From the NCBI GenBank assembly GCA_040757295.1, contig JBFLXH010000005.1:7014-71013 (forward strand): a stretch of 64,000 nt of DNA, read 5' to 3'. Origin of the DNA: Bacillota bacterium (GTDB lineage Bacteria > Bacillota > PH28-bin88). Positions 3,897-37,965 of this stretch are shown in pieces. Numbering within the stretch: the first letter of the stretch is position 1; each line of letters begins with the position of its first letter. Below the pieces are notes generated by a model. The model was not told the origin of the DNA, searched no databases, and saw only the letters and a list, made by a program, of their open reading frames with translations. Made by a program: the position numbers and the translations under genes.

Positions 3897-4928
3897 TTAC
3901 AGCATTTGCTTTATAGCGCGGGAAAGGGCCGCAGCTACAAATTCCACCAAACTGACCGCCTTGGCATAGTCCATGCGGGTTGGGCCAATCAGGCCTACAG
4001 TCCCCAGCAGTTGGCCATCAAGCTGGTAGGTTGTTGTAACCAAGCTGCATTCGGAAATCCCTTCATGATTATTCTCCCCGCCAATCCGGATATTTAATCC
4101 AATATTGCCAGGATGCTCTAGGAGATCCCGCAGCACTTTGCCTTCCTCCAGAATGGACAGCAAACTCTTGATTTTAGTAATATCCTTAAATTCTGGCTGA
4201 TTAAGGATATTAAGGGTGCCTCCCAAAAAAATCCTGTCATCCTTATTATCTGACGTCAACTGCTCCAAGGCCTCCAAAACCGTGCTGGCCAGCTTCTTTT
4301 GGAAAGACAGTTCAGACAGGATTTCATCAAAGGTATCCTCTTTCAACTGCTCCAATGCCAAGCCTTTTAGCTTGCTGTTTAATACTCTGGATACCCGCTC
4401 CAGATCATGCTCTGTTATCCCCGGGTGAATATCCAAGACCTGGTGTTCAACCACCCTGGTATTTGTGATTACTACCAAAAGGGCTTTTGTTGGCTCCACC
4501 TGCAGAAGCTGGATACGCTGGAAAGTGCTTCGGCCCATGGATGGAGCCAGAATAACAGCAGTTTGATGTGTCATTAATGATAAAAGATTTGTAGAGCGCT
4601 GGATTAAATCCTCAATCTCAGTCATCTTCTGGGCAAATCGCTCTTGAATATACTCCCGCTCCTGAGGAGTGAGACAATACTTTTCCATCAAACAATCCAC
4701 ATAGTAACGATAACCCCTATTAGAAGGGATGCGTCCTGCTGAAGTATGGGGTTGCTCGATGTAGCCCAATTCTTCCAAGTCAGCCATCTCATTGCGGATG
4801 GTAGCGGGACTGACGCCAAGGTTATACTTCCGGGCAATGGTGCGGGATCCTACAGGCTCAGCGGTAAACACATAATCATTGACAATAGCTGCCAGCACTT
4901 TTTTCTTCCGCTCGTCAAGACCCATCAT
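3897..4928 (-). CDS. hrcA: Heat-inducible transcription repressor HrcA
   Basis: N-terminus MMGLDERKKKVLAAIVNDYV, HrcA family. ATG at 4926-4928 lies 4 nt after AGGAGGTG. The CIRCE operator is immediately upstream. Confidence 0.85.
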   Translation of the reverse strand: MMGLDERKKKVLAAIVNDYVFTAEPVGSRTIARKYNLGVSPATIRNEMADLEELGYIEQPHTSAGRIPSNRGYRYYVDCLMEKYCLTPQEREYIQERFAQKMTEIEDLIQRSTNLLSLMTHQTAVILAPSMGRSTFQRIQLLQVEPTKALLVVITNTRVVEHQVLDIHPGITEHDLERVSRVLNSKLKGLALEQLKEDTFDEILSELSFQKKLASTVLEALEQLTSDNKDDRIFLGGTLNILNQPEFKDITKIKSLLSILEEGKVLRDLLEHPGNIGLNIRIGGENNHEGISECSLVTTTYQLDGQLLGTVGLIGPTRMDYAKAVSLVEFVAAALSRAIKQML

Positions 4929-4942
4929 TCCCCACCTCCTTG

Positions 4943-4969
4943 TTAGCACTCCATCCTCATGAGTGCTAA
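4943..4969 (-). promoter_or_regulatory. CIRCE operator (HrcA binding site), TTAGCACTC-N9-GAGTGCTAA
   Basis: Perfect 9-bp inverted repeat with a 9-bp spacer, directly downstream of the -10 box and upstream of the hrcA RBS. Confidence 0.85.
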
Positions 4970-5011: not shown

Positions 5012-6154
5012 CTAAGGAAGAGTTAACAAGAACTTCTGAAATGCCTCGTTGGCCAAAGGAAGACCCTGTCTGGTCAGGCGAAACCTTCCCCGATGTTTTT
5101 CAATTAAACCCAAGGTCATCAGCTTCGCCAACTGGCTGCCGTATACTTGCTCAAAGGGGACGCCGAAACGATGCTGAAAATCCATGGGGTGGTAGCCTTC
5201 CAAGAGCCTTAAACCCAAAAAAACGGTTTCAGCCATCTCAATTTCCGGCGGCAATGACTCCTTCTCCCCCACCGGCAATACTCCGCTGTTTACCATAACC
5301 AGGTAGGCATCCAGGTCTTTGGTGTTGGTCCAGCGCATCGACCCAAAATGGGAGGAGGCAGCTACACCTAAACCCAGGTACTCTTGGTTGCGCCAATAAA
5401 GGAGGTTATGTACAGATCTAAAACCTGGACGGGCAAAGTTGGATATTTCATAATGCAGGTATCCGGCTCCCGTCAAAGTATGAATGGTTAGTTCATGCAT
5501 GTTAAGAACAGTCTCTTCTTCAGGCAGAGACAGCAATCCCATTTTAAATTGATCTTCCCACAGGGTGCCTTCCTCCAGCTTTAATCCATAAGCCGCCAAG
5601 TGCTCCGGCTCCAAAGCAACCGCCCAGTTCAGGGTGTCCTGCCAGTCTTCCAGGCTTTGACCAGGCAACCCATACATCAAGTCAAGGTTAATATTAGCAA
5701 ATCCCGCTTTTCTGGCCGCTCTTACAGTTATTTCAGTGTCCCGGGAGTTATGCGCCCGGCCCAGAAAGGATAAAAGCCGGTCCTGGCGGGCCTGGGCGCC
5801 AATAGACAAGCGGTTAAAGCCAGCTTGCCTCAGGGTTTCCAGTTGAGACTGTTCAATTGTAGCCGGATTGGCTTCCATGGTGATTTCCGCATCCGGTACC
5901 AGTTCAATCAACCCCATGATGCCAGTCAGGATCTCCGCCAACTGTTGCGGGCCTAAGAGGCTGGGAGTACCTCCGCCAAAATAAACCGAGACAGCCCTCC
6001 GTCCTGTTACAGCAGGATGATATAAAGCGAGTTCGGCGATTAGTCCCTGCCCGTAAGCCTGGTACCTGTTTTCCTCAGTTGGAAAGGAAATAAAATCACA
6101 GTAATTGCATTTTTGCCGGCAAAAAGGGACATGCAGATAGACGCCAAAATCCAT
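5012..6154 (-). CDS. hemW: Radical SAM heme chaperone HemW/HemN-like (oxygen-independent coproporphyrinogen III oxidase family)
   Basis: N-terminal CxxxCxxC radical-SAM motif (VPFCRQKCNYCDF). AAAGGAG lies 7 nt before the ATG at 6154. The position between lepA and hrcA matches B. subtilis. Confidence 0.85.
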   Translation of the reverse strand: MDFGVYLHVPFCRQKCNYCDFISFPTEENRYQAYGQGLIAELALYHPAVTGRRAVSVYFGGGTPSLLGPQQLAEILTGIMGLIELVPDAEITMEANPATIEQSQLETLRQAGFNRLSIGAQARQDRLLSFLGRAHNSRDTEITVRAARKAGFANINLDLMYGLPGQSLEDWQDTLNWAVALEPEHLAAYGLKLEEGTLWEDQFKMGLLSLPEEETVLNMHELTIHTLTGAGYLHYEISNFARPGFRSVHNLLYWRNQEYLGLGVAASSHFGSMRWTNTKDLDAYLVMVNSGVLPVGEKESLPPEIEMAETVFLGLRLLEGYHPMDFQHRFGVPFEQVYGSQLAKLMTLGLIEKHRGRFRLTRQGLPLANEAFQKFLLTLP

Positions 6155-6191
6155 ATGATACTCCTTTTTGAAATAATTATAAACCTAGTAT

Positions 6192-6221
6192 AACACAAAT
6201 AAGGACTGCATTTTGCAGTCC
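6192..6221 (-). terminator. Intrinsic terminator/attenuator hairpin (GGACUGC-AAAAU-GCAGUCC + UUAUUUGUGUU) 45 nt upstream of the hemW start codon
   Basis: 7-bp perfect GC-rich stem 6203-6209/6215-6221 with a U-rich tail on the minus strand. It sits between an upstream promoter (6438-6467) and the hemW RBS. Confidence 0.5.
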
Positions 6222-6437
6222 AAAAGCTCCCACTTTGCCGTTTACCGAGGGTTTCTGAACCTGCCCCAGCAGGTGGGTATCCTACCAGCAGCTTTTGTCT
6301 ACCGAGCAAAGTCGGCCTGACAGCCACTTCCGGACACGGATTCCCGTAGAAACGGTGTTGGTTCAAAACACAAACGGTTCAACACGAACATCGCAGGATA
6401 TAATCTTTTTTTGCCCTTCAATCTACCGGGCAAAGCT

Positions 6438-6467
6438 ATCATACTATGATCCGGCTCCCGGTGTCAA
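6438..6467 (-). promoter_or_regulatory. SigA-type promoter (-35 TTGACA, 18 nt, -10 TATGAT) driving a ~220-nt leader toward hemW
   Basis: Minus-strand TTGACA (6462-6467) and TATGAT (6438-6443). Confidence 0.4.
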
Positions 6468-6499
6468 AGGGAAATTATTAGGAAAGGAAATCTAGGTGT

Positions 6500-6908
6500 T
6501 CAGTAGTCAGACCCCCTCGCCGCCTATAGCGGCACCATCGAAAGAGGAAAATTTTATTTTCAGGGTAGAATTCAAAATACCTCGGGGGATAATCGGATGC
6601 ATTGGTGATTACCGGAGTAAAACATTACGGCGCATTAGTTCAAAGAGCGAAGAAGCCTGAGGATAAGCCGCAGCCGGTGTTTGAGGGCCTTTAGGCCCGA
6701 GTTCCAGTGCGGCATGAATACCCGCAAGGGGCAGGCCGTCCGGCTAAGGCGGCAAAGCCGCCAAGCCTCCCGCACGGCGACTGAGCTCGTTCGGGAATAA
6801 GAGCGCCGTCCTTTACGGAGGTAACACCAAGGCAGCCAAGCAGCTTTCCTAAAAACCTGGGGACTTCTTTCTCCCCTTCTGACTTCTGACTTCTGACCAC
6901 TGACTACT
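6500..6908 (+). repeat. Structured non-coding repeat element, copy A (~410 bp), abutting the lepA stop codon
   Basis: About 88% identical to the reverse complement of 43023-43460. Flanked by an inverted repeat (GTAGTCAG ... CTGACTAC) and by TTCTGAC x3 heptamers. Contains conserved hairpins (GGCGGC-AAA-GCCGCC, CCCGCAAGGG with a GNRA loop) and has no credible ORF. Confidence 0.6.
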
Positions 6909-6910
6909 TA

Positions 6911-8722
6911 TCATTTATCTACTTGCAGCACAGCCATAAAGGCTTCCTGGGGAATTTCCACATTTCCTACCTGCTTCATCCGGCGCTTTCCTTCTTTTTG
7001 TTTTTCCAAGAGCTTCCGCTTACGGGTTACATCTCCGCCATAGCACTTTTCCAAGACGTTTTTCCGCATCGCCTTGACCGTATCCCGGGCGATAACCTTA
7101 TTCCCAATAGCAGCCTGGATAGGTATTTCAAAAAGGTGCCGGGGAATCAGTTCCCGCAGCTTTTCCGTCAGAGATCTGCCCCGGTGATAAGCTCTGTCCC
7201 CGTGAACAATACAAGACAAGGCGTCCACCACTTCTCCGGCAATAAGGATATCCAGCTTAACCAACTGGGATTCCCGGTAGCCAATTAACTCGTAATCCAT
7301 AGAGGCATAACCTCTGGTGCGAGATTTGAGGATATCAAAAAAGTCATAAATGATCTCACTTAGGGGCAATTCATATTCCAACATAACTCTTTTTTCCGAC
7401 AGGTATTCCATATTAGAGAACTGCCCGCGCCGGTCCTGGGCAAGTTCCATTACCGATCCCACATAGTCAGTAGGTACCATGATCGTGGATTTTACATAGG
7501 GCTCTTCCATCTTTTCAATGAAGTTTGGCAGCGGCAGGGCTGCAGGGTTATCAACCTCCAAGACTTCACCGTCAGTTTTCGTAACCCGGTAAATTACGTT
7601 GGGCGCTGTGGTTATTAGCTCCAGCTTGTATTCCCGCTCCAACCGCTCCTGGATTATTTCCATATGCAAAAGGCCCAAAAACCCGCAGCGGAAACCAAAG
7701 CCCAGGGCCAAAGAAGATTCCGGTTCAAAAACCAAAGAAGCGTCATTAAGTTTTAGTTTTTCCAAGGCATCCCGCAAATCTTCATACTGAGCCGTGTCTA
7801 CCGGATAAAGGCCGCAGAATACCATTGGCGTAACCCGGCGGTATCCCGGCAAAGGTAGGGCTGCCGGTGTCTTCCCACCGGTAATCGTATCCCCAACGCT
7901 GGTGTCTTTGACATTTTTGATACTGGCAGTCAAAAAACCTACTTCCCCTGCCGACAAGGATTCTGCTTGCCGCATGGCCGGTGTGAAAACCCCAACTTCA
8001 TTTACCTCAAAGGTTTTACCCGTGGACATCATTTTTATTTCCATACCCTTTTTTAAGCTGCCTTCAACTAAACGCACGTAAGGCACGGCGCCACGGTAGG
8101 AATCAAAATGAGAATCAAAAATAAGGGCCCTGAGCGGAGCCTCAGCGGCCCCAGTTGGAGGAGGAATTCTCCGCACGATAGCCTCCAAGATTTCCACTGT
8201 ACCGAGCCCGGTCTTGGCTGAGGCCAGAATAGCATCGGAAGCATCCAATCCAATAACGTCTTCAATTTCCCGCTTCACCCGCTCTGGGTCTGCGCTAGGC
8301 AGGTCTATTTTGTTAATAATAGGAATTATCTCCAGGTCGTGCTCCATGGCCAGGTAGACGTTAGCCAGGGTCTGAGCCTCAATCCCCTGGGAAGCGTCCA
8401 CTACCAGCAGGGCCCCTTCACAGGCAGCAAGGCTGCGGGATACTTCATAGGTAAAATCAACATGACCGGGTGTATCAATCAAATTCAATACATAATCCAG
8501 CCCGTCTTTGGCACGGTAGTTCAATCTAACAGCCTGTAACTTAATGGTAATCCCCCGCTCCCGCTCCAGGTCCATCTGATCCAATACCTGTTCAGCCATT
8601 TCCCGGGAAGAAAGGGCGCCGGTGAATTCAAGCAGGCGGTCAGCCAGGGTTGATTTTCCATGGTCAATATGGGCAATGATGCAAAAATTCCGGATAAACT
8701 GTTGTCCCCGAGCACCGCTCAT
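6911..8722 (-). CDS. lepA: Elongation factor 4 (LepA)
   Basis: [17 protein letters not shown] GTPase N-terminus, 603 aa, double stop TGATAA. Confidence 0.9.
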
Positions 8723-8746
8723 TTTTTAGCTCCCTTCAAATTGCAT

Positions 8747-8775
8747 ACTTCAAACTATTATAGCATTCCCTGTTG
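8747..8775 (-). promoter_or_regulatory. SigA-type promoter upstream of lepA (-35 TTGTTC, 17 nt, -10 TATAAT)
   Basis: Minus-strand TTGTTC (8770-8775) and TATAAT (8747-8752), about 25 nt upstream of the lepA RBS. Confidence 0.5.
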
Positions 8776-8805
8776 AAGGGAACAACTTAGCTACAGATTT
8801 AAGAT

Positions 8806-8925
8806 AAAAGTACTACTAGGAGTCAGAAGTCAGGAGCCAGAATGAAAGAGCGGTTTATCGTCTCGGGGCATTTTTGAATTCTGTCTACTGACTTCTGAAT
8901 ACCTGAATAGTAACAGATAAAAAGT
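8806..8925. repeat. Short (~120 bp) member/fragment of the same repeat family, with imperfect terminal inverted repeats (GAGTCAGAAGTCAG ... CTGACTTCTGAAT)
   Basis: Matches one end of the 410-bp elements (AGGAGTCAGAA ... ATTTTTGAATTCTG ... CTGAATAGTAACAG). Sits 1 nt after the murJ stop. Confidence 0.5.
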
Positions 8926-10509
8926 CTACCCCGGAAGCGGGTTGGTTTTACCCCGCCGCAGTCTTTGGCGCAGCATAGCCAAAATCATGGCGGCTTCCTC
9001 CATTTTTAACGCTAAAGTTAGCCCGGCATAAACTGCGCCGCCAGCAGAAACGGCTAGAGCCACCTGGACAGCCTGATACAGTTTGTTGGTTAAGTCTAAC
9101 GTTTGTCCCAGATAGGATGCAATACCGTAGGCAACCAGCCCCATGGCTAAGGAGGCAAAAAGGCTTTTAGCAAAGGACGTAATGATCCGCCAGCCGTCAA
9201 CCCCGTGGATTTTGCGGCGCAGGATTACCAATAAGATCAGCATGTTAAAGCCGCCGGCAATGGAATAAGCCAAGGCAAGCCCTCCTTCAGCCATAGGCTT
9301 GATCAACAGAAAATTAAGAGCAATATTTAGCGCAATGGTTGCCACCCCTACGGTTACTGGTGTCCTGGTATCCTGCAGGGCGTAGTACACCCTGTTCAGC
9401 AATTGAATCGAAGCGTAGGCAGCCAATCCGAGGGAATAGAACACCAGTACATGGGCCGTCGCCCGGGTAGCCTCAGCAGTAAACATGCCTTGTTCAAATA
9501 AAAACCTTACTACCGGTACGCCAATAGCGATAAATCCAACTGCAGCCGGCAGGTTGACAAAGAGCACGGAACGCAAACTTAAAGAAACACTGCGGCGAAA
9601 TTGTTCCATTTCGCCCCGGGCGGCATTGCCAGTCAGAGTAGGGAATACAGCTACAGATACAGCAATGGCGAAAATGCCGATGGGCAGCATCATTAGCCGC
9701 TGTCCTGTCCGGAGAGCCGCTACGGCGCCTGGAGCAAGAGTGGACGCCAGATTTTGATTTACGAAGACATTTAATTGAATTACCGAAAGACCAATCAATA
9801 CCGGGAGCATTAAACGGGCAACCTTTTGCACACCGGGGTGTTTTAGATTAAAAGAAAAATGATAGCGCAGCCCTTTTCTTAAGAGTTGAGGAAGCTGGAC
9901 GCCGAAATTAGCCATTGCGCCCACTACCACACCAATAGAAAAACCGGCGATGCCGTACCATTTGGAAAGGATCAGACCAACCAGCACAATGCACAAATTA
10001 TATAACACCGCACCCAAGGCAGGAGGGAGAAATTGTTTGTAGGAGTTCAAGATCCCCATGGAAATGCCGCTTAAAGCCATAAAGATGACCTGGATGAACA
10101 TGATTCTGGTTAACTTTACAGTTAAATCCATGCTTTCGGGGGAAAAACCAGGCACCAGGAAATATACCAGCTGAGGGGTAAAAATGATGCCAAGTAAAAC
10201 CCCAAAAAACATTACGACCATGATCAGGTTAAAAAGAATACTTGCCATTTCCCAGGCCTCTTCTTCCTTCTCAGTGGCCAAATAGCCGGTAAAAACCGGA
10301 ATGAAAGAAGAGCTTAAAGCTCCGCCCACCAGCAGCAAGTATAAAAAATCAGGGATGGAAAAAGCCGCATTATAAACATCGGTGAGCCTGTTTTGGCCAA
10401 AACGGGCATAAATGACAACATCCCGGAGATACCCCAGGATGCGCGAGGCAATCATGGCTACCATAATAATTCCCACTGCCTTGACTACCCGTTTATCACC
10501 AGAAGTCAT
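8926..10509 (-). CDS. murJ: Lipid II flippase MurJ (MviN family, MOP superfamily)
   Basis: ILGYLRDVVIYARFG...DVYNAAFSIPDFLY...GGALSSSFIP matches the MurJ N-terminal signature. The start is taken as the ATG at 10507-10509 (MTSGDKR), 7 nt after AGGGGG. The longer ORF to 10560 lacks an RBS. Confidence 0.8.
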   Translation of the reverse strand: MTSGDKRVVKAVGIIMVAMIASRILGYLRDVVIYARFGQNRLTDVYNAAFSIPDFLYLLLVGGALSSSFIPVFTGYLATEKEEEAWEMASILFNLIMVVMFFGVLLGIIFTPQLVYFLVPGFSPESMDLTVKLTRIMFIQVIFMALSGISMGILNSYKQFLPPALGAVLYNLCIVLVGLILSKWYGIAGFSIGVVVGAMANFGVQLPQLLRKGLRYHFSFNLKHPGVQKVARLMLPVLIGLSVIQLNVFVNQNLASTLAPGAVAALRTGQRLMMLPIGIFAIAVSVAVFPTLTGNAARGEMEQFRRSVSLSLRSVLFVNLPAAVGFIAIGVPVVRFLFEQGMFTAEATRATAHVLVFYSLGLAAYASIQLLNRVYYALQDTRTPVTVGVATIALNIALNFLLIKPMAEGGLALAYSIAGGFNMLILLVILRRKIHGVDGWRIITSFAKSLFASLAMGLVAYGIASYLGQTLDLTNKLYQAVQVALAVSAGGAVYAGLTLALKMEEAAMILAMLRQRLRRGKTNPLPG

Positions 10510-20736: not shown

Positions 20737-20913
20737 GCAAAACAAAACGCCTCTCCTATGACAAGAAGAGGCATGAAAACTTATCCTCCTCTTATCTCTC
20801 AGGAATAACCTGCAGGAATTGGCACCAATTCAAATAATCACGGCTATGCGGCCATCAATTCGAACGGTTGCCGGGCTTCATCGGGCCAGTCCCTCCACCT
20901 CTCTAGATAAGAG
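20737..20913 (-). ncRNA. SAM-I (S-box) riboswitch with intrinsic terminator, upstream of metY
   Basis: Minus strand reads CUCUUAUCUAGAGAGGUGGAGGGACUGGCCCGAUGAAGCCCGGCAACC ... GGUGCCAAUUCCUGCAGG ... GAGAGAUAAGAG, the canonical S-box core. It is followed by a GCCUCU ... AGAGGC hairpin + GUUUUGUUUUGC. Confidence 0.85.
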
Positions 20914-20979: not shown

Positions 20980-23490
20980 CTACCACCCGAAGGCCTGCCG
21001 CCAAAAATCCCTCCCCCGGCTTTCACCAAGCTCTGTCTCGACCCGCCAATCCCTGCCGTTACTCCAAAAGGTAATGGCGCCGTGCAGGTCATTCCGGCAA
21101 ACGGGGATCTCCCTTTCCTGCCAATACTTGATCACTTCAGGGGCAGGGTGATCAAAGGAATTGCGCTCACCAACCTGAATTACCGCTGCCTGAGGTTGGA
21201 TGGCAGCCAAAAAACCCCTATGCAACCCATATTTGCTGCCATGATGGGGAATCAGGAAAATGTCACAGTCCAGGTAATCCCCGTAATCTTGCAGCAAAAG
21301 TTCCATAGCTTCCTTTTCAATATCGCCGGTAAGGAGGATACTAGTCAGTCCATAATTGAGCTTTAGCACCAGAGAGTTGTTGTTGTAATCTGAACGGGTT
21401 CCGCTCAAGGGTTTGTCAGGCGCCAGGACCTGAATTTCTATCCGGGGGTCCAGCCAAAGTTGATCGCCCTTCCTGGCCGAAGCCCCCGGAATTTGTCTTT
21501 GAGACAGCAAGGAGAAAAACTTTTTGTACTCAGCTGCAAAGAATTCCGGAGGAGGTGTAATCACCAGTTGGACAGGCATTTTTTCCACTACTGCAAACAA
21601 CCCCGTCAAGTGATCGCCGTGGGGGTGGGTGTTAATCACCATATCAAGCCGCCGAATCCCGTGCCTGACAAGATAGGGTACAATAACCTTAGCTCCTGGG
21701 TCAAACAGGGAAGGCCCTTCTGCACCTCCCCCGTCCACCAGTGCCGTACGTCCGGCCGGGGTACGGATAAAAATGGCGCTGCCTTGACCCACATCCAAAA
21801 AAGCTACCTGCAGCAAATCTTTCTGGGAGTAGCTGCGTACCAAGGGCGCCACTCCCAGCAAGCAAACCGCTAATACAACAGCTATCAGTTTGATCCCTTG
21901 TGGTCTTCTAGTAGAATACTCTTTTTCCTGTGCGCGACCAACCCAATACTCCCGAAACATAATTAATGCTGAATAAAACAGGACTATTTCAATGATTGCA
22001 GGAGTTCTAATCCTATAGACGGTACCAGGCAAATAGGAGATACCCTCGACAGCCCATGTCAAGAAACTGATCACTGCACCATCAGCCAGGGCAAACATTG
22101 CCCCTACAGGCGGCAGGACAAGAGAGAACAAAAACATCACCAGACCCAGCATGACTACCAGCCCCACTAGCGGCACAACCAGGGGGTTTGCCACCATCGC
22201 CCCCGGGGACAGGATATTAAAGTAATAGGCAGTTAAGGGTACCAGGGCTAGCTGGGCCGCCAGGGGAACAACCAAAAGCTTACGCCAAGGGGGCAAAAAG
22301 GACAGCATGCTGTCCAAAAAGGGATACAGGTATACCAGGCCCCATGTAGCTGTGAAAGACAGCTGAAACCCCGGTTCAAAAAGGGCATTGGGGTTAAAAA
22401 GAAGGATAACAAAAGCAGCAACCCCCAGGGCAGTATAAAAATCCCTATCCCGGTCCCATAAGTAAGCGAATAAGGCCATGGATGCCATCAGACCAGCCCG
22501 TACCACTGAAGGGGTAAAACCGGTGACCGCTGCATAGAACCAAAGGACGGGCAGGGCAAGGAATACCAGCTTCTGTCTCGGCACCCCCAAGAGACGGCTG
22601 ATTTCATATAAAAACAACAACAGGAAACCTACATGAAGGCCAGACACTGCAAAGACGTGCATCACGCCCAAGTCGCGGAATCGCTCCACCTCTCCCTTTT
22701 CCAGGCGCTCCTTGTCTCCGAACAGCAGGGCCAGCAGCACTCCCGCCTGTTCAGCCGGCAGCGCCCTGTCCACCAGGGCGACAACCCGGGATTTGGCGGC
22801 CAACGACACCGCCACCACCGGATTACCCGGCCGCCTGCCTACCGGCTCCATACTGCCGGGGTTGTCCACCAGCATGCGGGTGAATACGCCCCGCCGGGCC
22901 AGGTAAGACCGGTAATCGAACTCCCCGGGGTTACGCCTGGTTGGAGGTAGCTCAAGCTGACCATGGATATGCAGGACGTCCCCGTAACGGTAAAGGGGAG
23001 CCCCCCACGGGGTGCGCCCCGGTTCTCTGTTGTTCGACCCGTAGCTGCCCAGGTTGTCACTACTCGTACCGGTTTGTTTCCCTCCTGCCGGGCGGGGTGC
23101 ATAGGCTACCACCTGCACCTTTTCGTCTATCCTTTGGTACCGGCCCTCCTGCCGCACCTCCTGCGCCCGCAGGGTATAGACCACCCGGTTGGCGTACACC
23201 TGCGGCTCTTCCACCACCACGCCTGTCAGAACCAGGTGCGTTTGCAGCCAATCCCCCAGGGCTGAGCGGTTTCGTTCCGCGGCTAGGGCAGCCCAAAACA
23301 AACCTATGACCAGGAAGCAGCCCAACACCAGCCAGGTATTGAACCGCCACCCCCGCCGGTACCCCATCGCTCCGGCCAACAGCAGCACCGCCGCAATTAA
23401 CGCCGTAAGGCCCAGGGATAAATTAACCCTCTGGGCCAAAGCAATTCCTGCAGTAAAAGCCGCGACAGTCATCACCAACGGGCGCTGCAT
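20980..23490 (-). CDS. comEC: DNA internalization-related competence protein ComEC/Rec2 (with C-terminal metallo-beta-lactamase domain)
   Basis: 836 aa, polytopic membrane N-terminal half, C-terminal VINTHPHGDHLTGL motif. GGGAGGGG 5 nt before the ATG. Confidence 0.85.
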   Translation of the reverse strand: MQRPLVMTVAAFTAGIALAQRVNLSLGLTALIAAVLLLAGAMGYRRGWRFNTWLVLGCFLVIGLFWAALAAERNRSALGDWLQTHLVLTGVVVEEPQVYANRVVYTLRAQEVRQEGRYQRIDEKVQVVAYAPRPAGGKQTGTSSDNLGSYGSNNREPGRTPWGAPLYRYGDVLHIHGQLELPPTRRNPGEFDYRSYLARRGVFTRMLVDNPGSMEPVGRRPGNPVVAVSLAAKSRVVALVDRALPAEQAGVLLALLFGDKERLEKGEVERFRDLGVMHVFAVSGLHVGFLLLFLYEISRLLGVPRQKLVFLALPVLWFYAAVTGFTPSVVRAGLMASMALFAYLWDRDRDFYTALGVAAFVILLFNPNALFEPGFQLSFTATWGLVYLYPFLDSMLSFLPPWRKLLVVPLAAQLALVPLTAYYFNILSPGAMVANPLVVPLVGLVVMLGLVMFLFSLVLPPVGAMFALADGAVISFLTWAVEGISYLPGTVYRIRTPAIIEIVLFYSALIMFREYWVGRAQEKEYSTRRPQGIKLIAVVLAVCLLGVAPLVRSYSQKDLLQVAFLDVGQGSAIFIRTPAGRTALVDGGGAEGPSLFDPGAKVIVPYLVRHGIRRLDMVINTHPHGDHLTGLFAVVEKMPVQLVITPPPEFFAAEYKKFFSLLSQRQIPGASARKGDQLWLDPRIEIQVLAPDKPLSGTRSDYNNNSLVLKLNYGLTSILLTGDIEKEAMELLLQDYGDYLDCDIFLIPHHGSKYGLHRGFLAAIQPQAAVIQVGERNSFDHPAPEVIKYWQEREIPVCRNDLHGAITFWSNGRDWRVETELGESRGRDFWRQAFGW

Positions 23491-23583
23491 CCGGTCCCCT
23501 CCCGCCGGGATTTCTTATACCTCGAGAAAATTCGCCCATGACCGGCAATATCCTGCAACGACATGTTAATAAGCCTTTTTCCC

Positions 23584-23870
23584 ATGCCTAGCCGAAAAAC
23601 AATTTGCTAGGTTGGGCAGACCGGTGATCGGAAGATGCCTCCACCTACCAGATGTGCTCCTAGCTACCGTCAGGAGGGATATGCCCATTACCGGGTCGTT
23701 GTCCATTCCTCTTCACTCGCGCCGCCGGTTATAACCCTGCCAGGCCGGAAGGCTAACCCCGGTACGCCTCCCGTCGATGCTTTACATGCAGGACGTAGAG
23801 GAGGCCCTTTTCCCGGTCAAAACGTAGGATAACCCGCCAGTCACCAACTCTGTATCGCCATATGTCCGCA
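23584..23870. repeat. 287-bp direct repeat, copy 1 (covers the last ~40 codons of the RelE-like toxin gene plus ~170 bp downstream)
   Basis: Near-identical to 25345-25629 except for one ~50-bp divergent patch. Confidence 0.7.
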
Positions 23871-24013
23871 GTACCTTCAAGTTTCTTTAAGTTCACAGCC
23901 TCCGGGTGCTGTGTTAACCTTTCCAGCGCGGCTACTATCCGTTCCCTAGTTGTCCTGTCCAACCTTGCCAGGTCTTTTAGGGCCGGTCTGGTCATCTCTA
24001 GCCGCACATTCAT
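23753..24013 (-). CDS. RelE/ParE-family type II toxin
   Basis: C-terminus GDWRVILRFDREKGLLYVLHVKHRREAYRG, typical of RelE/ParE. The ATG overlaps the upstream antitoxin stop as ATGA (24010-24013). Confidence 0.7.
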   Translation of the reverse strand: MNVRLEMTRPALKDLARLDRTTRERIVAALERLTQHPEAVNLKKLEGTADIWRYRVGDWRVILRFDREKGLLYVLHVKHRREAYRG

Positions 24014-24267
24014 AGACCAAGCTCCTTTTTGGCTTGCTCCCAAGGTATTGTGTCGCCCTGGGCGATGGCTTTTTCAGCCTCGCGGATTGCCGCCAACTCT
24101 TCCGGCTCTAGCGGTTCGTCATCTACCGGTGCCGTTTCTAAGGCTCTCAGAAGCGGGTCATCAATCTTCATGCTTAGGAGGAATTCCAAAAACCTTTTGG
24201 CTACCGGCATTTCCTGATCCGGCAAGGCCTCCACCAACCTGTGCAGGTCTTCTTTAATGACACTCAA
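24010..24267 (-). CDS. Cognate antitoxin (small acidic protein) of the RelE/ParE-like toxin
   Basis: 85 aa. TTG start 7 nt after GGAGG. Overlaps the toxin start by 4 nt. Confidence 0.55.
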   Translation of the reverse strand: MSVIKEDLHRLVEALPDQEMPVAKRFLEFLLSMKIDDPLLRALETAPVDDEPLEPEELAAIREAEKAIAQGDTIPWEQAKKELGL

Positions 24268-24349
24268 TGCTATGCCTCCTTTACTCTTGGCAATTCACTA
24301 TTCCGGTCCGATTTTTCCGGCCTTCTGACTGGCTTTCAGTTATTCAATG

Positions 24350-24759
24350 CTAGCTAACCCCAACTCTTTCGATTAGATTACGAGTAAGTTGCAAAAAGAC
24401 TTCCGCTTGTTTCACCGTATCGGCGGCCTCCGACTTGCTAACCAGATAAAACTCGTTATAATCACTTTCCTCCCGAATATCTTTGGCGTTTAATAGTATT
24501 CTACCAAACTCCTTTGGAACGATCCCTGTCTTAACAAAATGCTGGTTAAACAAGGAAATTACACCCGAGTGCTTCTTAGAATCGAATCAAGGCCTTTAGT
24601 GGCTAGAAGTGCCCTGGCCCCGTGCAAGAGAGCGTAATACGCCCTTGAGGTGGCATCGGCAAAATGAGATTGGTCAAGCAGCATTTTAGCACTTTCAAGT
24701 TTCTTTTCCGCCATTTCCAACCTATACCGAGCCAATTCTAAGCGGTCTATTGACTCCAT
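24350..24759 (-). pseudogene. HEPN-domain toxin gene split by a frameshift caused by a 5-bp tandem duplication (GATTC GATTC, plus-strand complement at 24579-24588)
   Basis: The N-terminal ORF (24559-24759, ... AYYALLHGARALLATKGLDS) and C-terminal ORF (24350-24553, ... FNQHFVKTG ... AKDIREESDYN) are in different frames. Removing one GATTC restores GLDSKKHSGVISLFNQHFVKTG. Confidence 0.65.
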
Positions 24760-25079
24760 AGTGCATACCCCTCGGACAGCACTTCTCTGACAAAAGGAAC
24801 CCCTTTCCTTTTGAAAGATTCAAATTCGTCTTCTCCATATATCTTGAGCGATAGGTCAACACCGTATTGCAGATTTACGTCCAACACATAATCATAAATC
24901 CGGGATCTGTCAATAAGCGATCTGTCCTTTACCACAATTAAAACATCAAAATCCGAATCCCGTCGAGCATCTCCCCTCGCGCGGGAACCAAACAACTGAA
25001 CCAAACGGATTTCGCCGGGGTATAACTCATTCAAATAATTGACTAACCCCTGCAACAGCTTCCTTTCACTTGTTTTCAT
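24747..25079 (-). CDS. Minimal nucleotidyltransferase (MNT) antitoxin of the HEPN/MNT pair
   Basis: GSRARGDARRDSDFDVLIV motif. ATG at 25077-25079 (MKTSERKLL) lies 10 nt after AGAGGGGG. Overlaps the HEPN start by 13 nt. Confidence 0.7.
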   Translation of the reverse strand: MKTSERKLLQGLVNYLNELYPGEIRLVQLFGSRARGDARRDSDFDVLIVVKDRSLIDRSRIYDYVLDVNLQYGVDLSLKIYGEDEFESFKRKGVPFVREVLSEGYALWSQ

Positions 25080-25344
25080 TAAAAACGGACCCCCTCTTTG
25101 GCTAAGGCCTTGCAATTCCTGGTACTATAATACCACAAACACTTGTTCCTGGCAAAGATCGTTTATCGTTCCCAGCACTGACGCATGAAAAATACCCGCA
25201 GACCGCTATTTTTTAACACCTTCACAAGAAAATAGCGCGAGAAGTTATTTCGTTCCAACCCCTGTAAGCCCTGATATGCCTGCGTTTTAAAAGTCATGCG
25301 TCCGTGCTGTGTCGTTCCTCTTGGTTGCCGAGCTGTTGACCTTG

Positions 25345-25629
25345 GATGCCTAGCCGAAAAACAATTTGCTAGGTTGGGCAGACCGGTGATCGGAAGATGC
25401 CTCCACCTACCAGATGTGCTCCTACTACCGCCAGGGGGGATTGCCAATTATCGTTTGGTCGTTGTCCATTCCTCTTCACTCGCACCGGTTATAACCCTGC
25501 CAGGCCGGAAGGCTAACCCCGGTACGCCTCCCGTCGATGCTTCACATGCAGGACGTAGAGGAGGCCCTTTTCCCGGTCAAACGTAGGATAACCCGCCAGT
25601 CACCAACTCTATACCGCCATATGTCCGCA
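25345..25629. repeat. 287-bp direct repeat, copy 2 (contains a frameshifted relic of the RelE-like 3' end)
   Basis: Same sequence as copy 1. The toxin-derived part lacks one T (CGTTTGACC vs CGTTTTGACC), giving a premature stop. ORFs 25163-25447 and 25296-25586 inside it are not credible. Confidence 0.7.
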
Positions 25630-25799
25630 AATCAGCTTGTTGGGCTGGCTGGTTCCGTCGTAGCTGAACCGGGTCAGCTGATTCCCCGCCACGGCGTCGT
25701 CCTGGGTGGGGACATAGAAAAAGGTCCTGCGCTTTTCATGAGCGTTGGGCCTTTTTCTTATGACTCTAACTAGAAGTTTGCTCCTAAGGTATAACAACT

Positions 25800-26219
25800 C
25801 TACGATGTAATTTCTTCGAAGAAAAATTTAGGCGTGACAATTTCAATGCCCCTGAACACACCTAGATTCAGCAAATGCTCGTCACCGGTAACAATGCGCG
25901 AAGCCTTCCCGGCCGCGGCACATTCTAAAACCATGTCGTCCTTGGGGTCTTCGGCGATGGCTTTGATTTTTTCTGCAGGATGAATTAATAATACCCAAGG
26001 AAATTCGAGAAGTTTTTGCAAGACCTCCAGCCGTTCCTCAATCCCGCCTAATACGTTAAATTTCTTGCGTGCAAGGACTACCGAATATTCTCTAATAAGT
26101 TCCGGACTTACAACAGGAACAAATTTACCAAAAACCCACCCGTCAAGCACCCTGACGGGGTAGCTTCCCGTGCTTAGCATACCGGAAATTAGGACATTGG
26201 TATCAATTACGACTCGCAT
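25800..26219 (-). CDS. PIN-domain toxin (VapC-like)
   Basis: MRVVIDTNVLISG ... N-terminus, PIN fold. Overlaps the upstream antitoxin by 13 nt. Confidence 0.75.
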   Translation of the reverse strand: MRVVIDTNVLISGMLSTGSYPVRVLDGWVFGKFVPVVSPELIREYSVVLARKKFNVLGGIEERLEVLQKLLEFPWVLLIHPAEKIKAIAEDPKDDMVLECAAAGKASRIVTGDEHLLNLGVFRGIEIVTPKFFFEEITS

Positions 26220-26491
26220 GAACGTGCTTCCTCTATTTCATACATGACATCCTTTTCGCTTAAACCGGCCTGTTCCCCACGTTCCCGCATTTCGTCCAGT
26301 ATGCTCTTTACTTCCAATTGTTTCGCTTTTTCGGACAGCTTTTTGAATTCCTCGTAGGAGGAATAACTCATAAGAACACCTTTTGGCTTTGAGCGTGATG
26401 AGATAATTACTACATCATCTTTCTTTTCAATTTCCTTTAGGTATTTCCCTAACAGAGGTCGTATTTTGTCAATACCCACTATTTTCTCCAT
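26207..26491 (-). CDS. Phd/YefM-type antitoxin
   Basis: DVVIISSRSKPKGVLMSYSSYEEF resembles the YefM/Phd core. AAAGAGGAGGG 5 nt before the ATG. Confidence 0.6.
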   Translation of the reverse strand: MEKIVGIDKIRPLLGKYLKEIEKKDDVVIISSRSKPKGVLMSYSSYEEFKKLSEKAKQLEVKSILDEMRERGEQAGLSEKDVMYEIEEARSCES

Positions 26492-26509
26492 GTTAACCCT
26501 CCTCTTTCG

Positions 26510-26553
26510 TTAATCTTAAGATTAATGATAATATTAATATGGAAAAAGGTCAA
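26510..26553 (-). promoter_or_regulatory. Promoter (-35 TTGACC, -10 TATCAT) with a perfect 16-bp palindromic operator TTAATCTTAAGATTAA between the -10 and the RBS of the Phd/PIN operon
   Basis: Read directly. The palindrome is at 26510-26525. Confidence 0.45.
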
Positions 26554-27015
26554 CCCTTAGTAGCCGGTTCCCACCGGTTCCCGCGACAGAACCGGGCGCA
26601 GGTGACAGTATCTCCATTCTCCTTCTCGTATAGAAATAAAAAACAGGTTTGCAAAAAACAATTTCCCCTGCCCCCGTGTCCCAAATGCCTAGTTTGGTAT
26701 AATCATAAGCGAAAAAGCATGCTCCTTCGGTTTGTTTTTCTTTAGCCGATTAAACAATACCACAGAAAGCGCATGCTTTTTCTTTTTTTTATTTAATTCT
26801 TTTGTTTTAGGTATTGCTCTCGCAAGCCATCGCGAAGCGATTTCGTTCTTCTCAATCTGTCGCATTTCAGGCTCTGAATATGATATCCTTACTGATGCCG
26901 GTATATTAAGCTAAGAAATGTCGGGAGTGTTGGCAAATTAGCGTAAAAAAATCGGCATTAACCTGGCCTTTGGGATTTACATTAATTACATGTATTAATG
27001 AGAGGCTACCCAAGG

Positions 27016-27804
27016 CTATTTCTTGTCTTGCCCCGCTTCATTAAGCACTCTTTTTTCTCCTCCACAAACCGGACAGTTCTGCATGGAAAGGGGAATTTCT
27101 AGTCCGCATTCTTCCATTAATTCTTTATCGACAAGAATTTTGTTTGTTGGCCCATCAGCTATTACTTCTCCATTGTTTAATATAATCGTTCTTTCGCATA
27201 GTTCCAATATCATATCCAAATCGTGAGATGCAATAATCTTTGTATGAGTAAATCCTTGAAGCAACCTGATTAACAGTCGTCTTGATTTTGGGTCGAGGGC
27301 AGAGCTTGGTTCATCCATGACCAATATATCAGGGTTCATCGCCAATATTGTCGCAATTGCTGCTGCCCTCTTTTCTCCCCCTGAAAGTTTATACGGTGGC
27401 CGGTCCGATAAGGACAAAATTCCGACAGTTTCAAGAGCCCTTTTTACCCTCTTTTCAACCTCTTCTTCGGGTAGCTTATAGTTGCGGGGCCCAAATGCTA
27501 CATCATCGTAGACAGAGGTCGTAAATAATTGATCATTAGGATCTTGGAAGACCATCCCCACTTTTTGCCGGATTATCGGTATGGTCTTCTTTGTTACCGG
27601 CATCTCACCTACCCGGATTTCTCCTTCATTGGGTAACAACACTCCGACCAGATGCATCAAAAGTGTAGATTTTCCTGCCCCATTTGCACCTACGATACCC
27701 ACAGATTCTCCATGCAGGATTTGAAAAGCAATCCCATTCAGCGCTTGCCGTCCATCAGCATACCTAAATTTTAAATTGTTTACTTCAATAATATGGTGAC
27801 TCAT
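27016..27804 (-). CDS. cbiO: ECF-type cobalt/nickel transporter ATPase (CbiO/EcfA-like)
   Basis: Walker A GANGAGKST, ABC signature LSGGEKRAAAIA, Walker B ILVMDEP. The ATG overlaps the cbiQ stop (ATGA). Confidence 0.8.
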   Translation of the reverse strand: MSHHIIEVNNLKFRYADGRQALNGIAFQILHGESVGIVGANGAGKSTLLMHLVGVLLPNEGEIRVGEMPVTKKTIPIIRQKVGMVFQDPNDQLFTTSVYDDVAFGPRNYKLPEEEVEKRVKRALETVGILSLSDRPPYKLSGGEKRAAAIATILAMNPDILVMDEPSSALDPKSRRLLIRLLQGFTHTKIIASHDLDMILELCERTIILNNGEVIADGPTNKILVDKELMEECGLEIPLSMQNCPVCGGEKRVLNEAGQDKK

Positions 27805-28622
27805 CTTCCTTCTCCTGTCATTAATAAACCTAAAAACGCAGGTATGTTAATAAATCTAACGATTACAAAAAATAAACTCCATCCTGCGAAATAAGCAATA
27901 TCACCAATCATCATTTTATTTTGTTTGCTAATCCTGTACTCCCCTGTAAATCCCCGACAGCACATAGAATGATAAACACGTTGCGCTCTTTCCAGCGTCC
28001 TCATTAATAACTGTCCGGTCAACGAACCCCAATTACTTATTTTGATACCCTTTGTATCTGGAGAGCGCAACGAATATGCACACAACGCACGCCCAACTTC
28101 CTCAATTAACAATGTTATATACCGGTATGTTAGAAGAAGTTGCATTATGAAAACCTTGGGAATTCTCATCATTCTAAGGGCTGACGCAACCCTTGTTATC
28201 CCCGTTGTCGCTATAAGCAGGAGGGCTGCCAATATTGTTAGAGATCCCTTAACCAGGATGGAAAAAAAGGATATCCAACCTCCGGAAATTTGTATCCATG
28301 GCAATATCACTACGGGATTGGTATCAAAAAAAGGATTAAAAACCCCTATGCCAATGATAAAAGGCATGACAAAAAGCATTCTTTTTAAAATTGGCACTAC
28401 AGGAATATCCGCCAGGGTTATTACAACAACAGGATAGAATATAAGGGGCAACAATCCGCTTAATTGATATTTGTCAAAAGATACGGTAACAAATAAAAAC
28501 ATGAGTGTGGTTAACACCTTCATCAGTGGATGTATCTGATGAATATTTGTTCTTTTTCCTGCAAGTTCATCAAGTAGCCTTATATTGTTTAATAATTCCA
28601 TCATATTTACCATATCAATCAT
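27801..28622 (-). CDS. cbiQ: ECF transporter transmembrane (T) component CbiQ
   Basis: 273-aa polytopic membrane protein of the CbiQ family, between cbiMN and cbiO. Confidence 0.75.
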   Translation of the reverse strand: MIDMVNMMELLNNIRLLDELAGKRTNIHQIHPLMKVLTTLMFLFVTVSFDKYQLSGLLPLIFYPVVVITLADIPVVPILKRMLFVMPFIIGIGVFNPFFDTNPVVILPWIQISGGWISFFSILVKGSLTILAALLLIATTGITRVASALRMMRIPKVFIMQLLLTYRYITLLIEEVGRALCAYSLRSPDTKGIKISNWGSLTGQLLMRTLERAQRVYHSMCCRGFTGEYRISKQNKMMIGDIAYFAGWSLFFVIVRFINIPAFLGLLMTGEGR

Positions 28623-28674
28623 CAGATCCTATAAATATTATTATGGCGGGTTTAAAGCCCGCCTACTTTTTTTT

Positions 28675-29727
28675 CTAAACAACGCTTGGTCTTTTTCGTT
28701 TTTTGAATAAAATTATGCAAAAACCTGTTATCCCAGCTAAAATTAAAGTCATGATGCCGCCAACCAACCCTGATATACTGGTTCCGGCATCCACAACAGG
28801 CCATGCTTCTTCAGTCTTTGTTTCACCTGTATTAGTTTCCTGTTCCTGAGTTTTAAAGCTGTAATCAGGTAAAAATGCAGTCTTCTCCTGAATGGAGGCC
28901 AATGTTTGATGGATACCATCGGGAACCTCAAGTTCCTCTTTACCCGAAGTATTAAATACAGACCACTCCAAGCCGTCTGGATGTGCAGATGCAAACCAAG
29001 AAAGAAACCCGCCAGTAAAAACCGCAACGATAGCAAGCACGGCAAGAACCTGCTTAATTGGAATTGTTCCCAACGCCTCACCTGACGATGCCTTCTCAAT
29101 GATTTCAGGGCGTGCCTTCCACACAAATCCAACAACTGCAGCTGTAATAAGGCCCTCCACCATTCCTATGGCCAGGTGAATAGGCTGCATTAACAGTAGG
29201 AAGGTGCCAAAAGGTAATTCCGTTTTTCCTGAGAAGAGTGTTTCCAATACTACACTGAACGCCCCAAGTTGAAGACCTATGATTGCAGACACCATTGTCC
29301 CAATAAATATTCGGCTAGGGGAATATCCCCTTCGCATGATTTGTTTATAAATCAAAGGATAAGCTATAAAGCATGTAAAAAAACCAAGATTAAAAATATT
29401 GCATCCCAGTGCAAGTAATCCGCCATCTGCAAAGAACAGTGCCTGGATAACTAAAATAGATGCCATAGTCAGAAAGCCCGCATAAGGGCCTAGTAATATT
29501 GCAAGCAATAAACCTCCACCTAAATGCCCACTAGAACCAGTTGCAGGAATGGAAAAGTTAATCATCTGGGCAGCAAACACAAATGCTCCCATTACCCCCA
29601 TTAAAGGTATTTTTTGCTCATCCAAGTCATTCTCAACTTTTTTTGTGGCATAAGCAGCAACCCCTGCTGTTACTGCCCACATGGTTCCGCCTACAACCGG
29701 TGAAATCAAGGCGTCTGCCATATGCAT
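28675..29727 (-). CDS. cbiM: CbiM substrate-capture component fused to a CbiN-like C-terminal segment
   Basis: N-terminus MHMADALISP ... (CbiM starts MH-x-x-DG/A). ATG at 29725-29727 lies 8 nt after AGGAGGAG. The C-terminal extra TM segment plus KKRKRP resembles CbiN. Confidence 0.75.
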   Translation of the reverse strand: MHMADALISPVVGGTMWAVTAGVAAYATKKVENDLDEQKIPLMGVMGAFVFAAQMINFSIPATGSSGHLGGGLLLAILLGPYAGFLTMASILVIQALFFADGGLLALGCNIFNLGFFTCFIAYPLIYKQIMRRGYSPSRIFIGTMVSAIIGLQLGAFSVVLETLFSGKTELPFGTFLLLMQPIHLAIGMVEGLITAAVVGFVWKARPEIIEKASSGEALGTIPIKQVLAVLAIVAVFTGGFLSWFASAHPDGLEWSVFNTSGKEELEVPDGIHQTLASIQEKTAFLPDYSFKTQEQETNTGETKTEEAWPVVDAGTSISGLVGGIMTLILAGITGFCIILFKKRKRPSVV

Positions 29728-30123
29728 ATGTATCTCCTCCTTAGCAGACCTCTTTTTACCGACAAAAAGCCACAAAGGCAATACACTGCTTCTGCAATGT
29801 GATCAACCTTCGTGGCTGTCTATCCTAAGAATAATGTTTTGCAGTTTCTAACTTAACCTTTTTGAGCCTTCATGACTCTTTTATACAAAATCTATTATAG
29901 TAAACAAAATCGCACTTGTCTACAATAATTCTGGCTGGTTATGGTGACTACGGGCTTGCACTAGAATTTGGCAGATGGGTTTTATGCAACGGTAACAGTA
30001 TTGCCATGGTTTTGGCGGGCTAGTCTCAACAACACCTTGCTGAGCCACGCCAGGTAAAAGTTGTTAAGAATATTCTTGTACATTACTATGATAATGATAT
30101 AATGTATATGGAGGTGTTACAGA

Positions 30124-37695: not shown

Positions 37696-37965
37696 AAAAG
37701 AAAAACCTCCCGCCCCATGCCTTGGGACGGGAAGTTTTATTTCCCGCGTTACCACCCAAATTGGTAATAATAAGTAATCATTACTACCCTCTCAAGGTTT
37801 ATTAACGGCAACCAGCCGGCACAGGTTAAAAATTCACCTGCACAGCTCCCGGGCGAGTTCAGCGGGCTTCCTGCTGTTTTTCACCATCCAACAGCTCTCT
37901 GATAAAGCTGACCCAGCCTAATGCTCCCGTTCACTGCTTTTCCCATTAGTTGATTAATAATTAAC
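37696..37965 (-). ncRNA. T-box riboswitch leader (Leu, specifier CUC region) with intrinsic terminator, upstream of leuS
   Basis: The T-box sequence AAUUUGGGUGGUAACGCGG is the reverse complement of 37746-37763. It is followed by the terminator CUUCCCGUCCC ... GGGGCGGGAGG + U-run. Stem I contains AGAGA and GAACUCGCC. Confidence 0.7.

Follow-up and report, generated by a model that had tools for sequence, protein, structure and literature searches.

A 287-bp direct repeat on the 5' side of comEC as a possible scar of toxin-antitoxin cassette stacking in a Bacillota bacterium

A direct repeat of about 287 bp was studied in a 64,000-nt stretch of DNA (the window; positions 7,014 to 71,013, forward strand, of contig JBFLXH010000005.1, assembly GCA_040757295.1) from a Bacillota bacterium of the PH28-bin88 lineage. 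Each copy of the repeat consists of the 3' end of relE, which encodes a RelE/ParE-family toxin, and of the spacer between relE and comEC, here called the tail. Toxin-antitoxin (TA) genes lie between the two copies, and every gene in the stretch around the repeats is on the minus strand. Read along that strand, the order is cbiMQO, phd-PIN, a hairpin plus 85 nt, copy 2, MNT-HEPN, relB-relE with its tail (copy 1), a leader, and comEC. Our favored reading, to which we give a probability of about 0.55, is that the repeat is the scar of a homology-driven (Campbell-type) stacking of TA cassettes at the 5' side of comEC and has no function of its own. The argument rests on the observation that direct repeats homologous to the target flank cargo that is known elsewhere as a discrete unit (in the contigs L097, L010, and L094, introduced below).

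Over 290 aligned columns, the two copies were 94.1% identical (BLAST E value, 1.6e-123), and no third copy was found within the 64-kb window. An earlier note on this DNA had described the same pair, and the repeats are real, although copy 2 starts at 25346 and not at 25345. The note had also called copy 2 a frameshifted relic of the toxin 3' end, and this description holds. Copy 2 is one T short (CGTTTGACC vs CGTTTTGACC). The first ~47 relE codons are missing from it as well, and with them any start codon, which leaves only the last ~38 codons. With neither a start codon nor the 5' part of relE, the fragment is dead whatever the frameshift. The relE gene that ends in copy 1, by comparison, scores 54.4 bits against the RelE domain profile (cut-off, 23) and covers profile positions 2 to 89 of 89. 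In a strain that is 99.5% identical (L093), the left junction of copy 2 is present, but with TTTT, and the single-T deletion is thus not fixed; it is strain specific or possibly a homopolymer error.

The arrangement was reproduced in independent short-read Logan assemblies from three other runs, which gave both outer junctions and the interior at 99.5 to 100% identity. The join from PIN through the terminator and the 85 nt into copy 2 was present in L092 and L093, the MNT-to-relE stretch in L098, and the tail-comEC stretch in L101. Since the junctions were recovered in independent assemblies, the arrangement is real and not an assembly artefact. It could be objected that the source is a metagenome-assembled genome (MAG), in which two strain variants might have been joined end to end, and each supporting short-read contig does break inside the repeat. 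That objection has almost nothing left to it when set against the recovered junctions, and the copies themselves differ by 13 events and each have unique flanks.

The closest relative was Clostridiales bacterium PH28_bin88 (L010), the ComEC protein of which is 61% identical to that of the window; the next matches were at most 45% identical in a scan that covered one genome per GTDB species. The relB-relE-tail-leader-comEC arrangement is also found in PH28_bin88 (7201-9299). The repeat unit occurs there as a single copy beside an intact relE (7621-7949), as the earlier note had anticipated for relatives. Nucleotide identity between the window and PH28_bin88 is 97 to 99% over relB-relE, 94% at the relE 3' end, and 80 to 86% in the tail. 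The tail is homologous to L010 7729-7949 (81%), and copy 2 is 89.5% identical to L010 7621-7896. Because the tail follows an intact relE and precedes comEC in this relative as well, it is not specific to the repeat and is simply the relE-comEC spacer.

A comparison of the two window copies (W1 and W2) with the two tails of PH28_bin88 (PA and PB) placed the duplication in time. Four sites grouped W1 with W2 against PA with PB, and one site supported any other grouping. The window copies are therefore each other's closest relatives, and the window duplication is recent and independent of that in PH28_bin88. The patch of divergence between the copies that had been noted earlier was also recovered: nine of the 13 events by which the copies differ lie within 68 of the 290 columns (binomial P = 6e-4, for a patch defined post hoc), and outside it there are identity blocks of 79 nt (100%) and 97 nt (99%). 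At the patch, copy 2 retains the state common to both PH28_bin88 tails. Among the copy-specific tail sites, copy 2 keeps the ancestral state at seven of eight, and those seven changes are unique to copy 1. This indicates that the patch is a derived cluster in copy 1 and not decay of copy 2. In copy 1 (23660-23705), the cluster comprises three substitutions, a deletion of 3 nt, and an insertion of 1 nt, all within ~36 nt.

The cassettes next to the repeats are found in other lineages with flanks of their own (Table 1). The window sequence from 26559 to 25805, containing phd-PIN, is 99.1% identical to L010 4953-5707, and the flanks on either side are 80 to 85% identical or unrelated. An identity of 99.1% at the nucleotide level, compared with 61% for the ComEC proteins, points to recent horizontal exchange of this sharp-ended 755-bp phd-PIN_3 cassette with PH28_bin88, as far as sequence comparison can tell. 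A further match to phd-PIN came from an ENA contig of another study (L094), where 95.8% identity extends over window positions 26691-26173. In both L094 and L010, a comEC 5' fragment once more lies ahead of phd-PIN. The MNT-HEPN cassette (window 25341-24317) is 98.4% identical to positions 1530-2402 of a Logan contig from a further lineage (L097), where it follows a VapBC pair and a comEC leader and 5' fragment that is 76% identical to the window. The earlier suggestion that the DNA between the repeats was recombined into place is borne out by this cassette. These matches showed that the phd-PIN and MNT-HEPN cassettes are discrete and horizontally spread. An attempt to extend the L097 lineage by way of its VapC protein found only the single 2.4-kb contig.

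Table 1. Features at and around the direct repeats (window coordinates)
Feature	Position	Strand	Basis and remarks
comEC, 836 aa	20980..23490	-	Gene and domain calls; intact with all three domains; mosaic in origin
comEC-proximal leader, 93 nt	23491..23583	-	Single in window, duplicated in relatives
Repeat copy 1	23584..23870	-	Last 38 relE codons and stop, plus 169-nt relE-comEC spacer (tail); terminates ...GGCTAGGCAT
relE, RelE/ParE-family toxin, 86 aa	23753..24013	-	PF05016, E value 1.9e-14; gene call in MAG
85-aa antitoxin-position gene (relB)	24010..24267	-	No Pfam match; overlaps relE start
MNT-HEPN cassette	24317..25341	-	Match to L097 1530-2402; both ends set by loss of homology; Pfam
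HEPN	24350-24759	-	Pfam; split by frameshift (5-nt duplication)
MNT	24747-25079	-	Pfam; intact
Promoter-like site of MNT-HEPN cassette	25155-25127	-	Promoter scan
Repeat copy 2	25346..25629	-	Start-less relE 3' fragment, one T fewer, plus tail ending ...GGCTAGGCAT
PIN 3' flank	25630..25804	-	Last PIN codons, terminator-like hairpin 25716-25758, and 85 nt; lineage specific, unmatched in L010
phd-PIN_3 cassette	25805..26691	-	Nucleotide match to L010 and L094; Pfam; promoter 26553-26525
PIN_3 toxin	26219-25800	-	Pfam
phd antitoxin	26491-26207	-	Pfam

In the window, HEPN is knocked out by a 5-nt tandem duplication (GATTC GATTC) at ~24580-24589, on which the Illumina-derived contig L098 agrees. 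The HEPN of L097 (~2170-2230) is without that duplication and carries a separate deletion of 1 nt, ~75 nt farther along. The lesions being different, the toxin was inactivated twice independently, with the MNT antitoxin intact. The split HEPN and the relE-like fragment at 25513-25629 should be annotated as pseudogenes. The 5' region of the MNT-HEPN cassette also contains an extra segment of ~140 nt (25173-25311) that is flanked by GGAACGA direct repeats and is not in L097; it represents either an insertion in the window or a microhomology deletion in L097.

The limits of the repeat are accidental. Only 5 nt separate copy 2, at its right end, from the left edge of the MNT-HEPN cassette (GGTCAACAGC...), and this sets the right repeat boundary at the junction of tail and cassette; from 25345 downwards, the sequence upstream of MNT reads CCAAGGTCAAC. 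On its left, copy 2 stops at an older truncation of relE. The copies are spaced by 1.76 kb, a period that shows no repetition beyond the 287 bp.

Related arrays were found in PH28_bin88, with other limits. Its second tail copy begins at tail position 54, joined directly to the stop codon of a PIN gene, and leads into an open 305-codon comEC 5' fragment (5708-6824). A third, shorter comEC leader and 5' fragment lies upstream of phd (4729-4952), and the fragment designated frag1 derives from the L094 type by deletion. The segment duplicated in this genome thus extends from tail position 54 to comEC codon ~287. Given these different limits, the homology that is shared recurrently is the comEC-proximal region and not the toxin 3' end. 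The 305-codon fragment, compared with the 5' part of the resident comEC, has a ratio of nonsynonymous to synonymous substitution rates (dN/dS) of 0.28 at a dS of 0.50, and ratios between species are 0.23 to 0.30. Such a between-species-like ratio indicates that the fragment diverged in a functional gene and joined the array by recombination, and did not decay in place. When 80 comEC loci of other species were each compared with themselves, upstream comEC fragments were found only in PH28_bin88, and the phenomenon is therefore specific to this clade. A search with the ComEC N terminus for displaced fragments likewise gave only the PH28_bin88 fragment among the matches listed.

The comEC gene is itself a mosaic with a boundary in the same region. 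From codon 1 to codon ~287, it is 71 to 90% identical to the PH28_bin88 gene per 100 nt, except for one much lower, indel-rich stretch. After window position ~22631 (...GGCCTTCATGT, codon ~287), identity falls abruptly from 90% to 47%, and beyond this point it stays at roughly 35 to 70% per 100 nt. Codon ~287 is also where the displaced fragments stop in L010 (frag2) and L094, with different cargo after them. The breakpoints are at 22620-22640 in the window, 6824 and 8866 in L010, and 238 in L094. The ends of the L010 frag2 and L094 fragments read GTTAAGGGGAATTCATGT and GTTATAGGGAATTCATGT, with the common altered motif GTTA(A/T)(A/G)GGGAATTCATGT. The coincidence of the fragment ends with the drop in identity hints at a fixed element boundary.

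In the reading that we favor, new units would enter by homologous single-crossover (Campbell-type) insertion or by an equivalent unequal exchange. The incoming DNA would bring a cassette together with a comEC-proximal stretch, namely the relE 3' end, the tail, the leader, and the comEC 5' part, and after its insertion the homologous stretch would be present on either side of it. For the window, the proposed event is recombination between an MNT-HEPN/relB-relE/tail unit and a resident relE-tail copy that was already decayed. The resident partner would have had the order PIN-terminator-85 nt-dead relE-tail-leader-comEC, and the incoming partner may have been a circular or bridging MNT-HEPN-relB-relE-tail closed at GGCAT|CCAA-GGTCAAC. 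On this account, resident homology would have run out at 25629, the left end of the repeat, and the closure junction would lie at 25346, its right end. We infer the single-crossover mechanism, the order of events, and the circular or bridging intermediate from the present arrangement. The existence of such a resident state is corroborated by PH28_bin88, where phd-PIN is fused to tail-leader-comEC as a displaced layer. The only present role of the 287-bp homology would presumably be that of a substrate on which RecA could delete or amplify the 1.76-kb unit. Its loss would take relB and the 5' part of relE with it, so that RelE addiction should oppose deletion, a counterselection in keeping with the known behavior of type II TA modules.

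Several results weigh against stacking by plain homologous recombination. Circular forms, empty sites, and deletion products were all absent from the contigs examined, and so was the proposed resident state (PIN-terminator-85 nt-dead relE-tail-comEC). The evidence comes from four lineages, three of them represented by short contigs. A three-way comparison of the duplicated segment showed no clean hybrid pattern, which would be expected of a recent single crossover between diverged partners; in the reciprocal-hybrid comparison, the copies were sisters with most changes unique to copy 1, and the repeats of the relative were without a clean switch. Neither comEC fragments nor the junction motif occur elsewhere in the window, and the link to the arrays of the relatives is thus one of analogy. 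Finally, a site-specific process would explain the fixed boundary at codon ~287 no less well than plain homologous recombination would. In the relatives, the arrays could have arisen by a site-specific process that acts in trans on comEC at codon ~287. A more specific form of this idea, which we hold only tentatively, is that the clade has very small mobile units without a recombinase, made up of TA cargo, the leader, and a stand-in for comEC codons 1 to ~287, with a fixed insertion point at ...GGCCTTCATGT, the window repeat being a trimmed remnant of one. With such units, comEC might stay intact while its previous 5' third is pushed upstream and TA cassettes pile up, a course of events that is conceivable but that we would not bet on. 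It is suggested by the coincidence of three independent junction types at codon ~287 and by the two displaced fragments that have different cargo and the same altered end.

The rivals of homology-driven stacking were weighed against the same data. The most serious is an internal segmental duplication, in which slippage or unequal sister-chromatid exchange copied relE-tail and unrelated indels followed, with no mobile unit involved. This would account for the copies being sisters within the lineage and for the lack of mobility genes in the listed stretch. It is nonetheless improbable, at something like one chance in a handful, since the layout is not tandem and its period is not repeated beyond the 287 bp, the boundary coincides with a horizontally shared cassette, four lineages independently interleave cassettes with comEC-proximal fragments, and one comEC fragment was clearly imported or displaced and not copied in place. 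The earlier note had offered another explanation, a duplicated attachment (att) site of an integrating element. Here, the relE 3' end and tail would be the site of a site-specific element, duplicated on integration as with phage 21 or e14 at icd. Direct repeats do flank TA cargo, and RelE homologues with 58% identity adjoin a tyrosine integrase in other metagenome contigs. No recombinase Pfam family was found among the genes listed, however, over ~10 kb on either side, and an element that targets a gene 3' end would leave its orphan fragment beyond that end, whereas the fragment here is upstream of the intact relE. Nor is there a short identical core between divergent arms, as identity comes in blocks of 79 and 97 nt. 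On the right, the boundary falls at the edge of a cassette that is mobile in its own right, and on the left, at an older truncation; the duplication in the relative has different limits. No more copies were found in GTDB species representatives, JGI metagenomes, IMG/VR, plasmids, or phages. We regard an att site as very unlikely. What stands of the earlier proposal of a crossover in the relE 3' end and tail is that a homology-driven crossover is compatible with the layout; the dedicated, structured att site is judged to be wrong.

The sequence downstream of relE had also been described as structured, and this was not upheld. An Rfam search of the tail at the gathering score and at E values of up to 10 gave no family, the only hits being weak terminator-like matches outside the repeat. 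RNA folding z-scores of the tail were +0.99 and +1.32 for the sense strand and -1.27 for the antisense strand, showing no excess stability, and single-stranded DNA folding of the whole unit gave z-scores of +1.03 and +0.56 for the two strands. In a consensus folding of the four tails (alifold), none of the 51 predicted pairs was compensatory, and the covariation term was a penalty. A tRNA/tmRNA scan found nothing, a simple scan detected no sigma-70-like promoter in the tail, and the unit contained no inverted repeat and no terminal inverted repeats. Sequence downstream of more distant relE homologues (58 to 70% identical) showed no similarity to the tail. The tail might still be thought to be a functional cis-regulatory or structured RNA, either a comEC leader or a relE 3' element, that was duplicated because it is needed before the MNT-HEPN operon. 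In its favor, a core of ~50 nt is nearly invariant in all four copies across the two genomes. Against it stand the folding, family, and covariation results and the lack of a sigma-70-like promoter, and copy 2 is without the 93-nt comEC-proximal leader. We consider a function of this kind highly improbable.

No recombinase, integrase, transposase, or reverse transcriptase Pfam family was found among the genes called from comEA (~34.4 kb) to ~10 kb past comEC. The only Pfam families between the repeats were MNT, HEPN, antitoxin, and RelE. Exact 22-mers of the tail gave no match in GTDB species representatives or in IMG/VR and one chance match in JGI metagenomes (L095). The whole array had no megablast match to plasmids and phages, and the MNT and PIN proteins were not found in viral contigs. 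An integron was rejected as a source of the repeat, since the unit has no foldable, attC-like palindrome or inverted repeat, no IntI-type integrase family is in the gene lists, and no tail copy follows HEPN or PIN. A diversity-generating retroelement was rejected because the 13 events include C/T and G/T changes as well as indels and no reverse transcriptase is in the gene lists. A miniature inverted-repeat transposable element or insertion sequence remnant was likewise set aside, there being no terminal inverted repeats, two copies in the window, and no 22-mer matches in GTDB representatives and IMG/VR.

Accretion of mobile DNA at the end of a gene has precedents. In the ICESt1/ICESt3 family at fda of Streptococcus thermophilus, integrative elements and their decayed derivatives, the cis-mobilizable elements (CIMEs), accrete in tandem at a gene end. 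The present locus resembles those arrays in growing at one gene boundary, in having partial target copies between units, and in that many units are without recombination genes of their own. It differs in its long and variable repeats (0.29 to 1.1 kb), its position on the 5' side of the gene, its TA-only cargo, and the lack of a visible integrase or short att core. With SXT/R391 at the prfC 5' end, and phage 21 and e14 at icd, the element supplies a replacement gene end. In a similar manner, the 5' third of comEC in the relatives differs in ancestry from the 3' two-thirds, and older 5' parts are displaced upstream. The replacement here would be far longer, at ~860 nt of coding sequence plus the leader, and no recombinase was found; the window, moreover, duplicates relE-tail only and not comEC. 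A third parallel is provided by rhs and cdiA, which have downstream arrays of orphan toxin and immunity genes that hold 3' fragments of the toxin gene and are both assembled and reshuffled by homologous recombination. Those arrays likewise stack toxin-related cassettes beside a conserved gene, each with a piece of that gene as homology. At the present locus, by contrast, the fragments come from an unrelated housekeeping or competence gene, and the cargo consists of type II TA modules.

In S. pneumoniae, a genomic island lies in comEC (Del Grosso 2002, as cited in PMC12378983). There too, comEC is a landing place for mobile DNA, but the island disrupts the gene, whereas comEC is intact here. 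TA-bearing integron cassettes are comparable in being small TA cassettes without mobility genes of their own in a one-directional array. They differ from the present units, which have no attC-like hairpin, no repeat after each cassette, and no IntI in the gene lists.

The repeat itself is an ordinary scar, and it is the surrounding pattern of TA cassettes and comEC fragments, with its breakpoint at codon ~287, that is modestly novel. The locus shows addiction modules accumulating beside a core gene without a visible mobility gene. The site at which they stack is the gene for the DNA-uptake channel, which is itself mosaic at the same boundary. If an insertion mechanism does act at codon ~287, it would be unusual for mobile DNA, in that a third of the target gene is replaced and the gene is not disrupted, and the competence machinery would be linked to how TA cassettes spread.

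Some further observations concern the edges of the units. The heptamer TAGGCAT occurs at the right end of both repeat copies (23584-23590 and 25346-25352), at the left end of the phd-PIN cassette (26685-26691), and also at L094 399, and an 11-mer, AAATTGTTTTT, occurs both in the tail and in the 5' region of the phd cassette. Both were set aside as candidate recombination sites because independent edge cases are too few. The 85-nt segment that separates the PIN terminator from copy 2 (25630-25715) has a minus-strand translation of ...AGNQLTRFSYDGTSQPNKL... that by eye resembles a YD/Rhs repeat and has no Pfam match; it may be a remnant of another gene. The region 6825-7221 of PH28_bin88 includes, ahead of relB-relE, an 84-aa open reading frame with a promoter-like site that overlaps a perfect 12-nt inverted repeat (TTAGGCACTACT / AGTAGTGCCTAA). 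Its product may be a third component or a regulator. A 20-nt relE-like scrap also follows the comEC fragment in that genome (6854-6873).

The G+C content of the cbiMQO region and the phd-PIN cassette (26250-30000) is 33 to 45%, compared with ~50 to 55% in the surroundings and up to 66% in the 5' part of comEC, and the interval from comEA to comEC looks like an island of acquired genes. Elsewhere in the window, Rfam matches above the gathering score on the minus strand were a 6S RNA, a SAM riboswitch, and a T-box leader (6223-6402, 20789-20913, 37720-37943). The SAM riboswitch precedes an O-acetylhomoserine sulfhydrylase gene.

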